A DNA stretch of 64,000 bases from Squalus acanthias (Eukaryota), in NCBI GenBank assembly GCA_030390025.1, contig CM059448.1:7502001-7566000 (forward strand), given 5' to 3'. A program made the translations under genes and the position numbers. Shown here in pieces: positions 1,421 through 7,353 of this stretch. The notes under the pieces are model-generated. The model was not told the DNA's origin, searched no databases, and saw only the letters and a program-made list of their open reading frames with translations. The number at the start of each line of letters is the position of its first letter. Position 1 is the first letter of the stretch.

Positions 1421-2428
1421 ATGGCATCCAGTGGGTGATCAATGTGCACTGAAAGGGCCAGCTCTGCTCTAATGTGCAGAATAGCTGTTCCACTCGTTCG
1501 AGTAGTTGATCAGACCTTGAAGGAGTAATAAGAACCGTCCAATCACTCGCTGTGCTGGCCCAGTTAAGGACCACGTGCTGGATTCCCAAACACAGACCAT
1601 TTTCCGAGCAGTTCCCTCAACCTGAAAACAAATCTGTGCACTCCTATTTTTGAACTCATCCGACTCCACATTCACAGCACTTGTAACAAGAAGCAAGATT
1701 TTTTTTTGTATATATAAGTGTGGCTCCTGACATTCACAGGTAATTAAAGAAATGCTCTCCTGGAACGCACTCCAGCTTACCGTGTACATTTCACGTGGTT
1801 CCTAAAGACACCGCCTACGTAGGGGTATCTGGTGTGTAATTATGTTTTAATAGGGTGTACCAGAGTAAGAGCCCAAGAGATCCAAAGGTCAACAACTGGT
1901 CAGATGGGCAATACATTGCCATCCATTACAAAGCTTGTGAAACACAAAAAACGACATCGATCTAGCAACAGGAACACATTTAGGAACCATTTGTGACGGC
2001 TGCCAAATGAAGAATACCATGTAAAAAGGTAAATACAACACACGAGTGGGAAATTTGAAACTGAGCTGACCAAAGGTGTGAACTATATTAGAAATAATTA
2101 AAATCAGAAAACGCTGCAAATACACAGGCCAGTCGATATCCGAAGAGCAAAGAGGTTTTAAGGGTTAGGGTCAAAACGCTTTGTCGGAACTCAAAACCTT
2201 CTCCCCCAAACATTAACTTACAGATAAGGTTACTGTGCACTTTCATCTGCAATTTTTTTTTTTTTTAATCTCCATTTTCAGATTTCTGCAGTGCACAGGA
2301 CACCCTGGTCTTTGTCTATTGAAGTCTCGTCCTCCTCAGTTGCAACCGCTGCAGTACACAGTCAAACTCACCAGAGGGTGCCAGAATTCAGAAAACCGAA
2401 AGCCAAAATCTTTCGTGGAGGGCAGTGA

Positions 2429-2520
2429 TGACGTTCAATCCAAGCAGGTATATAAAAGGTTGCAGTAGCAGAGCATAGTTAGAGCTTTCAGCACTGCAGA
2501 CCCTCCAGAACAAAATCGGT
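2429..2520 (+). promoter_or_regulatory. candidate TATA promoter and short non-coding first exon of the nested gene
   Basis: TGACGT CRE-like site at 2429, TATATAAAAG at 2449-2458; only a weak donor (CG|gtagct at 2519). Confidence 0.35.
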
Positions 2521-2644
2521 AGCTTTTTACATTTGGTTACCAACTTTGTATCTATGTAATATTCGTTTTTAAAAACTAAAAAGTTTTGGTTAGTTTTGTT
2601 CCAGTTTCATGAGTTACAGTGTGCCCAAAGTCACCGAAATTTCA

Positions 2645-3650
2645 TACAATAGCAAAATACTGCGGATGCTGGAAATCTGAAACAACAGAAAATGCTGGAA
2701 GCACTCAGCAGGCCAGGCAGCATCCGTGGAAGAGAAACAGAGTTAACGTTTCAGGTCTGGGACCCTTCGTCAGAACTGGAAAAAGCTGGAGATGTAACAG
2801 ATTCTAAGCAGGTGCAGAGGCTTGGGGGGGGGGGGGGGGGGGGGAGGAGGGGAGAGAAAGAGAGGAGGAAAGAGGGGAGGATCTGAAGGAACAGTCTGTG
2901 CTAGGGTAGGAGACAGGAAAGGTTAAATGTTGCAAATGGGGATGGCAGAATCATACAGCCTGAAAAATGGGGGCAGGGGTTATAGTCTGAAATTGTTGAA
3001 CTCGATGTTGAGTCCAGAAGGCTGTAAAGTTCCTAATCGAAAGATGAAGTGCTGTTCCTCGAGCTTATGTTGAGCTTCATTGGAACAGTGCAAGAGGCAG
3101 AGGACGGAGAGATCAGAGTGGGAGTGAAGCGGAGAATTAAAGTGACAGGCGGCCGGAAGCTCGGGGTCACCCTTACGGACTGAACGGAGGTGTTCCGCAA
3201 AGCGGTCGCCCAATCTGCATTTGGTCTCCCCAATGTAGAGGAGACCGCATAGTGAGCAGCGAATACAGTATACTAAATTGCAAGTACAACAAGTAAATCA
3301 CTGTTTCACCTGGAAGGGGTGTTTGGAGCCTTGGACAGTGGGAAGGGTGGAGGTAAAAGGGCAGGTGTTGCATCTCCTGCGCTTGCACAGGAAGGTGCCG
3401 GGTGAAGGGGAAGGGCTGTTGGGGGTGATTGAGGAGTGGACCAGGGTGTCGCGGAGGGAGCGGTCCCTTCGGAATGCTGAAAGGGGAGGCGAGGGGAAGA
3501 TGCGTTTGGTGGTGGGATCACGTTGGAGGAGGATGATCCGTTGAATGTGGAGGCTGGTGGGGTGAAAGGTGAGGACAAGGGGAACCCTATTGGTGGTTCT
3601 GGAAGGGAGGGGAAGGGGTAAGAGCAGAAGTGCGGGAAATGGAACGGAGT
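2645..3650 (-). mobile_element. Penelope-like retroelement remnant: GIY-YIG endonuclease C-terminus plus terminal repeat
   Basis: IGETKCRLGDRFAEHLRSVRK...HFNSPLHSHSD...EEQHFIFRLGTLQPSGLNIEF is typical of PLE GIY-YIG; adjacent hammerhead-bearing repeat. Confidence 0.88.
2741..2777 (-). ncRNA. minimal type I hammerhead ribozyme motif (Penelope-associated)
   Basis: reverse complement reads agtt CTGACGA a gggtc cca gacct GAAAC GTT aact. Confidence 0.65.
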
Positions 3651-4667
3651 GCGTCCAGCATTTTCTGTGTTATTTCACTGAAATTTCACTTGGGCCATTC
3701 TGTACTTCCTTCTCGGAGCACAGTAGAGCAGGACGGCGATTTAAATTCTGAAGGTTTATACAGCTACTTAAGGAGAAGTTAGCGAGTTCACAGGGAAAAC
3801 TGATCAGTTATTCTCGTCAACAAACTAAACACAAAAGTTCTTCGCATTGCAAACACTTCAATTTTTTTTAAAATCTGCAATGAGTTTGATTTAACCGATC
3901 GGGTTTGTAAGCGGTTATTTAAAAAAGTGGTGATTGTAGGACTTGGAAATTTAAATCATATTTCTGCTTGACTGTACAAAATAGCCCGAGTGAAACTTAA
4001 ATGGGCAGCACTCTGCCCAGTGGTTTCCAGAGCAGCAATGGTGGAACAAGTGCCATGCCCAGCGTTACAATGTGGTGCATTCACTGGAACCATGTTCTCT
4101 CTCAATAGTTTCATGATGGTTCCTGTAAGTGCGTCTCATCTCCAGCAATATAGAAAGCTGTACTTTCTCCTGTAATCTGCCCTTGCAGAGTTGCCTGGCC
4201 CAAGCATTAGCAAATTGCTCTTTCAGCAATCTATTTATCAGATTAAAATGTAGTCTTATGACACACTAACCTCCCTCACTTTTGACTAGCAGATATTAAA
4301 CAATCATTTTACAGATTTCAAAAATTTAATATACAAGTATCATTTCCCTCAAATGGAGTTAAAATTGAGCGAGTGGTGTGATCCAAATTGAAGGTGTACA
4401 GTTTATTCACAATTTGTGGTGACTAAGTTTAAAGTGTAAACTGCCAAGGGGGTTGGAAGCTCTTAAACTAAATTATCCACTTAAAAAATGTTAACAAGGA
4501 AACATTGTTCGAGAGCAATTATGTTTTTCATTTTCATAACCAAAATCTGTGCAAGGTGGTCAAGAAATCATTATCCAATGTGAAACCAGAATTGCAATTT
4601 GTAGAGTGACTTCAAATCTGGCTTTTATATTTACAAAACAATACCTGTATTGCATTTACAGCGTAAA

Positions 4668-4961
4668 ATGGCTGCCTATACCTGGATATCATTTATGTTG
4701 GCACTGTTGTCGGTTACTCTTGGAACTTACCAAAACACTACAGAGTCCACGGAACGCTACAATTTGACAGAAACATTTAAAAGCAGCCTGGCCACTACAC
4801 CAGAGGGGACGAGCCCCACGGCCACCAACGCAAGCTACAATACAGCCAGTGTTCACCCCAGCAACAAGTCACTGGCTGCCCCTCTCGCACCTTCAGCTGT
4901 TACGCTTGCAACATGCACTGGGTTTGCAATGCTGGGCGGGGCAGTAAAGCTCCTCCCTTGA
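4668..4961 (+). CDS. putative small GPI-anchored, mucin-like glycoprotein (97 aa) nested antisense in NF1 intron 27b
   Basis: acceptor tttacag| at 4661, aaaATGG Kozak, signal-peptide-like MAAYTWISFMLALLSVTLG, 20/49 Ser/Thr core with 4 N-sequons, hydrophobic C-terminus without cytoplasmic tail, AATAAA at 5276. Confidence 0.75.
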   Translation: MAAYTWISFMLALLSVTLGTYQNTTESTERYNLTETFKSSLATTPEGTSPTATNASYNTASVHPSNKSLAAPLAPSAVTLATCTGFAMLGGAVKLLP

Positions 4962-5275
4962 AAATAAGCCCCTTCTGTACTCTTTGTAAACACTAACCAG
5001 CTGGTAAAGACAAGAAACAAAACCCGTCGAAATGATGCAGCAACATTTCAGCATGAAGCTAGAGGAGAACAAATCCTGTCTATACATCACTTCAAATGCA
5101 CCTGTAGTTTTAACGCAGCAGTAATTAACTCAATGATTATTGCAGATCAATTGCAAACATGTTGAAATACCCACATGTATAGATTTGTTGCTGCGGATTC
5201 CATTTTTTTTTAATAACATACAGCATTTCAATCAAATGTTTAAATTGTTCAAGTTGAAGTATGCCTTTCAATTCC

Positions 5276-5332
5276 AATAAAATGGTTAAAAAATTGTTCA
5301 AGGTGTCCAGCAAGATTTGTCTTTACTTTGTG
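5276..5332 (+). terminator. polyadenylation signal and downstream U/GU-rich element for the nested ORF
   Basis: AATAAA 5276-5281, 315 nt after the stop; tttgtctttactttgtg at about 5316-5332. Confidence 0.6.
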
Positions 5333-5807
5333 AGCAAATTTTCTGGGGTGGGGGTTTTGCAATTCTGGATCATTTTCCTGCTCTTGGACCCGTGAGCATC
5401 AAGCGGTTTCACTTTGGATGCTGGATAAAGCACCAATTTCAATTAATTGTAACCCAAACCACAAAAACCCGACTGCGCCAGTTTGGTATCACCATCTCCT
5501 TCATTAAGGATGGGTAATGACCTCAATAGATTGCGAGCTCGATGTTGATTACGGACAGATCTGTGCAATGGATTCACACCAATTAGACGTTAGGTCGAGA
5601 CTGCTCACAACTCATTTCACTTCGGACACTGATTCGAGATGTAAACAGGTCCGGACTGGAAAGACAACCTGTTAATCTACACCACACCCAGTCCCGAACT
5701 GGAATATCCTTTTAAAACAGTGAAATAGCTCAGCTGGTAAGGACGGCATATAGCTGAGCTATAAACACCAAAAGGTCACTGGTTAAGCTTGTTGGTCTGT
5801 GCTGGAC

Positions 5808-6121
5808 GGCGACACGGTGGCATAGTGGTTAGCACTGTTGCCTCACAGCGCCAGGGACCCGGGTTCGAATCCGGCCTCGGGTGACTGTCTGTGTGGAGTT
5901 CGCACATTCTCCCCGTGTCTGCGTGGGTTTCCTCCAGGTGCTCCGGTTTCCTCCAACAGTCCAAAGATGTGCGGGTTAGGTTGATTTGGCTATGATAAAT
6001 TGACCCTTCGTGTTAGGGGGATTAAATAGGTGGGGTTACGGGGATAGGGTGGGATATGTGTCGGTGCAGGCTCGATGGGCTGAAATGGCCTCTATCTGCA
6101 CTGTGGTGATTCTGTGATTCT
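5808..6121 (+). mobile_element. HE1-type tRNA-derived V-SINE, inserted in an older SINE
   Basis: A box tggcatagtggtt, B box ggttcgaatcc, V-domain tgtgtggagttcgcacattctccccgtgtctgcgtgggtttcctcc, tgattctg tail. Confidence 0.9.
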
Positions 6122-6846
6122 GGATTGGTTGACTTCAGTCAGGGGGGGTGGTGTTGCAATTTGCCTCAGTACCCAGGGCCAAAGAAAGGAATCAGTTCGG
6201 GTCCCAGTCATGGTTTGGGATTTTTTTGGTCCACTTGACCACGGGGAAGGACCTGGACAGGACACGTATGCTGCGCCAAGGCTGGTCGGAAAGGGGTTAG
6301 CTTCTCAGAACAGCCCCAACGCTGGATTGTGGATCCATAGGCAGGCGATTAAAAAGGCGAGATGAGAAGTTGTGTCGCACAGAGATCAAACAATGGTCAG
6401 TTCGTCAATGTCTCCGATAAGACTTTTTTGCACTTCTCCCTTTCCCCCCCCCCCCCAAAACAGTAAAATCACACCGCCGGGAGGGATGTGAATGAAAGAG
6501 ATTTAATTCAAGCAGCGTTTTAACATGATATTAATTGCTTTCGCCTTTTACTAACATTTGCAAAGTATTCAACCAACATGCATGATCAAACTTCCAAGCA
6601 ACAAAGGCTGTGTGAAAAGCAGACACCAGCACTATCTTATCTACCACAATCAGTAAAACTGCTCAATGATCACTTTAGGTGACAAAATCGTGACTGAGTG
6701 CTTCTTTGAAAAAAAATACTGCTGGACTTTTATATTAAAAAATATTCTTGCCACTGTGTCAATCCACCTTATCTCCAGGCTACACCAGTGGTGTTACTAC
6801 TAGCGGTGTTGGGGGGAGGGGAGGTTGAGGAGAGCCCAAACATATC

Positions 6847-7068
6847 TACAGTTACCAACCCTCCAGGAATGGAAGATTAATCTCCTGGACACTGATGCGA
6901 GCAACCCAGGAGAAAAAAAAAAAATCATAGGGGCATTAAAAAATGCTTTGAACATTTTCATTTATTAGTTATAAAAAAATATTGAAAATAGGGGAAAAAG
7001 GCCATTTGATCGGGCAGGGCATGTGATGGAACCTCCAGGAATACGTTCAAGCAAAGTTGGTAACCCTA
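6847..7068. mobile_element. non-autonomous hAT-like element
   Basis: TIRs tacagttaccaac / gttggtaacccta; imperfect 8-bp TSD aacatatc/cacacatc. Confidence 0.65.
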
Positions 7069-7137
7069 CACACATCCCACAGCAGCTCATTCATTGCAAC
7101 AAGAGCTGCAACCGAGAGCAAACTAAAATGAATCCTA

Positions 7138-7353
<216 letters not shown>

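Follow-up and report, generated by a model that had tools for sequence, protein, structure and literature searches.

The intron of the Squalus acanthias NF1 gene that houses OMG, EVI2B and EVI2A probably contains a fourth nested gene: a real, fast-evolving and weakly expressed gene whose product, a small glycopeptide with a probable GPI anchor, would be CD24-like in action without being CD24. The window analysed here is a stretch of 64,000 nucleotides (contig CM059448.1, positions 7502001-7566000) from a genome totalling 3.7 Gb. Positions refer to the window, seven-digit positions refer to the contig, and those prefixed L003 or L007 lie to the left of the window. The candidate is a 97-codon open reading frame (ORF; protein P0001), accompanied by the following features:

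4668-4961, + strand: 97-codon ORF, ATG in AAAATGG, TGA stop, whole coding sequence (CDS) in one exon
4628-4661, + strand: predicted 3' splice site, with a branch-point-like TTTAC at about 4630-4634, a pyrimidine tract and a CAG ending at 4661
4668-4724, + strand: signal peptide predicted by heuristic, residues 1-19, cleavage between TLG and T
4725-4871, + strand: predicted mature ectodomain, residues 20-68, 20/49 Ser/Thr, no Cys
4872-4958, + strand: predicted GPI attachment signal after omega residue S68 (alternatives N66, S76), with spacer and hydrophobic tail
4962-5332, + strand: predicted 3' UTR, with AATAAA at 5276-5281 and a U/G-rich tract downstream at 5314-5332
2429-2594, + strand: candidate promoter/first exon A, with a CRE-like TGACGTTCA at 2429-2437 and TATATAAAAGG at 2449-2459
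L003:5824-5942 (left of the window), + strand: candidate promoter/first exon B, with GC box, TATA, initiator and donor
7139-7249, - strand: NF1 exon (HQVHEKEEF...YYIARR), with the GT donor of the host intron at 7138

The CAG acceptor at 4661, the ATG at 4668 in a Kozak context, the 294-nt frame and the AATAAA at 5276 followed by a GU-rich element had all been named in a preliminary description of this DNA and were recovered at those positions. The acceptor (TGTATTGCATTTACAG, last base 4661) ranks first among the 14 HAG sites in 4300-4720, with pyrimidines at 10/15 positions and an AG-free zone of 53 nt. The interval from OMG to the ORF contains two promoter candidates of the TATA type. The donor of candidate A (G/GTTAGT, near 2588) is weak. 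Candidate B occupies a region (L003:5800-5942) that combines a GC box, TATAAAT, an initiator-like TCATTTC about 29 nt further on and the donor CCG/GTAAGC, and which is a candidate core promoter with a short exon; it holds an internal ATG whose frame, if joined to 4662, stops one base before the main ATG. The codon-position GC content of the ORF (0.46/0.58/0.52) is OMG-like, and was set aside because the value follows from the amino-acid content.

The following NF1 exon (FKTGQING...) begins at contig position 7441869, giving a host intron of 67.3 kb, which we take to be intron '27b' from its nested genes and exon ends. Exon mapping places the stop of the ORF 2.18 kb into this intron on the strand opposite NF1, matching the antisense location about 2.2 kb inside intron 27b that had been proposed. 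The possibility that the ORF belongs to a dispersed repeat is not borne out: 4400-5500 has one match genome-wide and is single copy, and local repeats gave no matches in 3788-5790. Rfam likewise returned 0 matches over 1500-7100. A high-copy insertion of SINE/LINE type occupies 2640-3690, within the presumed 5' UTR intron, and the contigs of relatives break at its edges. Three nested antisense genes are described for the mammalian NF1 intron in the available part of PMC7692384, which also places human NF1 at 17q11.2, and three genes are given for it in the figure legend available from the TOGA2 preprint (10.64898/2026.06.30.735536); the accessible portion of PMC6896060 confines its treatment to mammals. 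Neither a fourth nested NF1 gene nor nested NF1 genes in sharks were found in the literature searched, which comprised listings, abstracts and passages of papers, mostly from outside the subscription journals.

The sequence left of the window had been pointed to as the place to look for OMG, EVI2B and EVI2A, and in the 150 kb read there for nested genes all three are present and intact:

7493099-7494937, + strand: OMG, 612 aa, with LRRNT/LRR, Ser/Thr region and hydrophobic end, assigned by domain content and position
7491914-7492008, + strand: candidate OMG promoter and first exon, TATAAATA, with donor G/GTAAGT 94 nt later
7475345-7476358, + strand: EVI2B, 337 aa, 42-65% identical to 19 relatives from sharks and rays, of which several bear the name EVI2B
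7454698-7455441, + strand: EVI2A, 247 aa, above the cut-off of the EVI2A family (PF05399)

These genes lie 9 kb (OMG), 27 kb (EVI2B) and 47 kb (EVI2A) left of the window within the 67-kb intron, and the order along the NF1 direction is 97-codon ORF, OMG, EVI2B, EVI2A. OMG has a candidate TATA, a good acceptor about 1.1 kb beyond the candidate exon-1 donor (7492008) and its own AATAAA 821 nt past the stop. Mammalian OMG has about 440 residues compared with 612 here, and the extra length is accounted for by the Ser/Thr stalk, in which a 156-nt repeat is present in 3.1 copies (95% match, L003:2085-2563). The ectodomain of EVI2A contains 5.0 near-identical 45-nt repeats (99% match, 7454795-7455021, equivalent to L007:2795-3021) for an acidic 15-mer in which a Tyr follows three Glu, a pattern that may be akin to the tyrosine-sulfation motifs of selectin- and chemokine-binding mucins. 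The best EVI2B matches are from Heptranchias (65%) and then other sharks; the shark and ray orthologues (P0004-P0022) are mostly named 'uncharacterized', 'mucin-like' or 'leukosialin(-like)', and the cluster is poorly annotated. Between EVI2B and OMG, about 5 kb of simple repeats of AGAG/ACAG type (7483650-7488800) generate spurious frames of 780-830 codons.

The ORF displays the placement and layout of an NF1-nested gene, lying inside the intron on the opposite strand with a single-exon CDS behind an acceptor. The gap from acceptor AG to ATG is 6 nt, as against 7 nt in OMG, 5 in EVI2B and 17 in EVI2A. With OMG, which is GPI-anchored according to the available part of PMC5370280, the ORF shares the antisense nest in the same NF1 intron, a Ser/Thr-rich region and an acceptor 6-7 nt before the ATG; with EVI2A and EVI2B it shares nested antisense placement, a single coding exon and the layout of a mucin-type surface glycoprotein. 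It is unlike OMG in length (97 versus 612 aa) and in domain content, since a Pfam scan of P0001 found neither the LRRNT nor the leucine-rich repeats that are present in the 612-aa OMG, and BLASTP gave no alignment between them (best E 2.5). EVI2A and EVI2B have a true transmembrane helix and a cytoplasmic tail, whereas P0001 is predicted to have neither, shows no family match of the EVI2A/EVI2B type and does not align with these proteins (E 15 each). The earlier view that the ORF fits none of OMG, EVI2A and EVI2B therefore holds. Because it aligns with none of the three intact neighbours, one of them an LRRNT/LRR-bearing OMG, the idea of a reduced OMG is refuted and that of an LRR-less OMG duplicate is left without sequence support.

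The signal segment of the predicted protein contains an uncharged 10-mer of KD 2.5 with small residues at -3/-1. Our recount of residues 20-68 agrees with the original one in both the Ser/Thr content and the four sequons (N23, N32, N54 and N66). GPI signals consist of small omega and omega+2 residues, a polar spacer and a hydrophobic C-terminal tail. S68-L-A (tail 29) or N66-K-S (tail 31) fits the omega rule, so that the proposal of N66 or S68 as omega site stood as regards these residues; the hydrophobic end proposed with it proved weak. The tail runs to the stop with no cytoplasmic tail and is of moderate hydrophobicity (15-mer KD 1.33, best 19-mer 1.53, compared with 2.03 for the 15-mer of the OMG tail), failing a KD threshold of 1.5 and passing one of 1.25. 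The GPI signal is thus plausible but weak. An additive membrane-insertion sum gives +3.4 kcal/mol for the tail versus -4.6 for the EVI2B helix, and the tail is predicted not to be a good transmembrane helix. Since it is too weak for such a helix and ends at the stop, GPI anchoring or secretion would be the alternatives.

The chance expectation for such an ORF was calculated with our own heuristic rules for signal peptides and GPI-like ends, set after the ORF was known. In the first rule set (C-terminal 15-mer KD of at least 1.5) 0/362 local ORFs pass signal and GPI, the 97-aa ORF itself being excluded, and in the relaxed set (1.25) the 97-aa ORF is the only one to pass of the 362 (60-200 aa, both strands, 214 kb). 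In 79.8 Mb of order-5 Markov null sequence, signal and GPI rules are passed by 201/117,910 ORFs (about 1 per 400 kb), of which 113 add a hydrophilic core, 22 add at least 25% Ser/Thr and 0 add at least two sequons; acceptor and Kozak context alone are passed by 16,317 null ORFs (14%) and form no part of the 0/117,910 figure. For a window of 64 kb the chance of such an ORF is thus far below 1 in 400, a figure to be discounted because the rules were fixed after seeing the ORF.

Word-indexed protein searches found no homologue among 12 candidates of 53-170 aa or among 635 of 171-2000 aa. A phmmer search of 1.84 billion representatives gave two matches, both to tandem-repeat proteins and both rejected, as were Thy-1 among PDB sequences (E 0.84), a Pfam match to YiaAB on the signal peptide (E 0.08) and a second match in the shark's own genome, on C13, in an unrelated frame (E 1.7). 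None of 547 pattern matches on metagenome contigs was confirmed, and one metagenome 21-mer match was rejected, its contig having 62% GC and nothing similar in the flanks. An exact sequence look-up returned 0/4 with the OMG and EVI2B controls included, and is hence uninformative. As a control for sensitivity, the first 97 residues of EVI2B pass the library-wide threshold for 7/19 shark and ray orthologues, and a pure mucin stretch does so for 4/19; had a close shark carried an annotated orthologue, the search would therefore probably have found it. Short ORFs without homology often remain unannotated.

In the Atlas, a language-model resource, the nearest cluster to the ORF is CD24 at 0.90, a lead only, with 146/256 features versus 170 typical of family members. 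The recognition value of 1827 is under the level typical of known families, and shuffled proteins attain 0.9 in 4-10/100 cases. Further look-alikes are C1orf54/DUF4634 (PF15465; 0.87) and an unnamed 131-aa chordate cluster (0.86), a feature likeness below 0.9 with no alignment; Pfam gave no DUF4634 match in P0001 at E<=10. The resemblance to CD24 and CD52 lies in a signal peptide, a short glycosylated mature peptide, a GPI signal and no cytosolic domain, as judged for the ORF by sequence heuristics. The CDS of CD24 and of CD52 is split over two exons, whereas that of the ORF lies in one. The CD24 profile (PF14984) gave no hmmscan match to the ORF at E<=10 and five sub-threshold matches genome-wide; the CD52 profile (PF15116) gave no match on the ORF and 11 sub-threshold matches genome-wide; none of these lies at the ORF locus. 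CD24, as set out in the available part of PMC9680537, is a mature peptide of 27-32 residues from a precursor of 76-82 residues, compared with a predicted mature peptide of about 49 aa for the ORF. The same part of that source gives its conserved residues as glycosylation sites, reports its origin as before the reptile-bird split and places the human gene at 6q21, whereas the ORF lies in the NF1 intron; synteny is not shared. CD24 is without a cytosolic domain, resides in rafts and binds Siglec-10, the last likewise true of CD52 (PMC7379889, available part), and the literature searched gave no record of CD24 in fish. On profile and synteny the predicted protein fails as a member of CD24/CD52, and by sequence it is also neither OMG, EVI2A nor EVI2B. 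The original reading of the ORF as a fourth nested gene with CD24/CD52-like architecture thus survives in its architecture, and as the best reading, without a profile match to either family.

The frame can be followed in two relatives through the DNA-type runs X7 and X8 (organisms C and D), each of which yields one 3035-nt contig over 3621-5785. Substitutions over 4045-5785 number 104 in X7 and 101 in X8 (about 6%; about 94% identical). Among the 12/45 indel rows listed, 2-base deletions fall inside the ORF at 4769 in both X7 and X8 and at 4740 in X7. A 2-base deletion taken alone breaks the frame, and the shifted frame stops at 4778. In the X7 piece 16/42 gap letters are listed and the other 26 include 5 deleted letters. 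Indels are split by the read aligner (as in rows 4220 and 4221) and small ones are hidden, so the true losses could be in-frame ones of 3 bases. Both deletions lie in the mucin part; the mucin part of the EVI2B orthologues checked (5/19) has 4-9 indel events. The deletions, as aligned, appear moderately adverse to an intact gene. The share of shared words over 4600-5400 is 0.19 versus 0.15 expected from flank-level substitutions, near enough to the flank expectation that there is no clear excess conservation.

None of the runs listed as containing the stretch is on record as RNA; six, each with part of the stretch, are guessed to be RNA and come from organisms A and B in two studies. Contigs were obtained from 4/10 listed runs, namely X1 and X3 (guessed RNA) and the DNA-type X7 and X8. 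X1 and X3 were picked for containing the stretch and are unstranded. The repeat at 2640-3690 crowds the tables of the four runs, so that 195 substitution rows, 33 indel rows, 218 joints and 2827 loose ends fall outside the rows listed. X1 contains a contig at 4555-5080 (depth 6.5) and X3 one at 4905-5195 (depth 8.3), each with 0 mismatches. Depth is lower in the remaining unique contigs of the listing (in X1, 2.1 at 1965-2223 and 2.8 at 5513-5790; in X3, 4.5 at 1929-2138). The deepest unique-sequence contig listed in both runs thus sits on the ORF/3' UTR, a weak enrichment. The X1 contig spans the acceptor with 107 intronic bases upstream; it is therefore unspliced and may be NF1 pre-mRNA. There is no joint at 4661 among the 15 of 233 joints listed, and the X1 bin at 4668-4811 is as deep as the contig itself, so that a spliced branch concealed at this place is less likely. 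Depth in the X1 bin at 4524-4667 is 14.4. The listed contig, which starts exactly at 4555, accounts for 5.1 of this; the excess suggests a short, deeper contig outside the list, absent from X3. None of the listed contigs reaches the poly(A) signal at 5276 (X1 ends at 5080, X3 at 5195). Cover is zero in X1 and X3 in the bin of candidate A (2364-2507) and bare at 3660-4523, neither of which is taken to prove silence. A low-depth contig occurs within 1929-2223 in both runs, which were not selected for it, and the contigs run through a strong donor (AAG/GTAAAT) at 2029.

Several other explanations of the locus need to be weighed against a functional fourth gene. The ORF could be the relic of a once-functional small glycoprotein gene, now silent or decaying, open in Squalus and frameshifted in relatives. 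A relic would account for the losses of 2 bases at 4740 and 4769 in relatives of about 94% identity and for a divergence at flank level, as well as for the contig left unspliced at the acceptor, the unseen first exon, the weak GPI tail and the lack of an annotated orthologue despite 19 elasmobranch EVI2B proteins in the collection. Nevertheless, the reading frame is intact here, as are its acceptor, its Kozak context and its poly(A) signal, a neutral 294-nt frame would often break at such divergence (on a rough estimate about 1 in 5 survive), and the gap letters listed for the relevant X7 piece are 16 of 42. We regard a relic as unlikely.

A chance ORF in neutral intron sequence, with the RNA-type contigs being NF1 pre-mRNA or DNA, would agree with the failure to find homologues, with signal-plus-GPI-like null ORFs arising about once per 400 kb, with rules tuned post hoc, with some shuffled proteins reaching the Atlas value of the ORF and with the cover of other patches of the intron. 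This is hard to reconcile with a full feature set that occurs in none of the null ORFs, on the strand used by nested genes and with its ATG 6 nt past the top-ranked acceptor of the area, and makes chance quite improbable. Finally, the ORF might be an alternative last exon of the OMG unit, in which the non-coding exon 1 of OMG skips the OMG coding exon and splices to 4662, replacing OMG with a short GPI glycopeptide. The ORF is on the same strand, 14.6 kb downstream of the candidate OMG exon-1 donor; neither local promoter candidate has RNA support, and the upstream ATG frame of candidate B would end just short of the main ATG. OMG, on the other hand, has a good acceptor and its own poly(A) signal, and two TATA-type candidates intervene between it and the ORF, so that we consider this the least probable of the readings.

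For the fourth nested gene that we favour, transcription would begin at its own promoter, located between 4661 and the poly(A) site of OMG, and would be low or take place in an unsampled tissue. A short non-coding first exon would be spliced to 4662 and the transcript cleaved near 5300, giving a two-exon + strand transcript like that of OMG. By the established rules of the secretory pathway, the product would enter the ER, lose its signal peptide after G19, acquire N-linked glycans at as many as four Asn and O-linked ones at many of the 20 Ser/Thr, and undergo transamidation at about S68, or be secreted if the weak tail fails. The predicted result on the outer cell surface is a heavily glycosylated, GPI-anchored and Cys-free peptide of about 49 residues. 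Having neither fold nor cytoplasmic tail, it would serve as a glycan scaffold, either recognised by receptors of the lectin type or coating membrane rafts against adhesion, as with CD24 and CD52.

More speculatively, the NF1 intron of early jawed vertebrates may have contained four single-exon surface glycoproteins. The fourth, a CD24-like GPI glycopeptide whose shortness and fast evolution defeat annotation pipelines, would persist in sharks and rays without annotation, would have been lost or missed in bony vertebrates, and would give cartilaginous fishes an independent small glycan 'self' ligand predating CD24 and CD52; we put this forward as a possibility that we ourselves find doubtful. 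Such a gene would settle no long-standing question, and it may be lineage-restricted or decaying. The case would illustrate a blind spot, in that mucin-like genes of fewer than 100 aa are invisible to homology search. Nested genes have their textbook example in NF1 intron 27b, where OMG, EVI2B and EVI2A already stand in mammalian order in this shark; a fourth gene, if true, would alter the view of how the cassette formed. Cartilaginous fishes would then gain a surface glycopeptide of the CD24/CD52 type, a class reported from amniotes.
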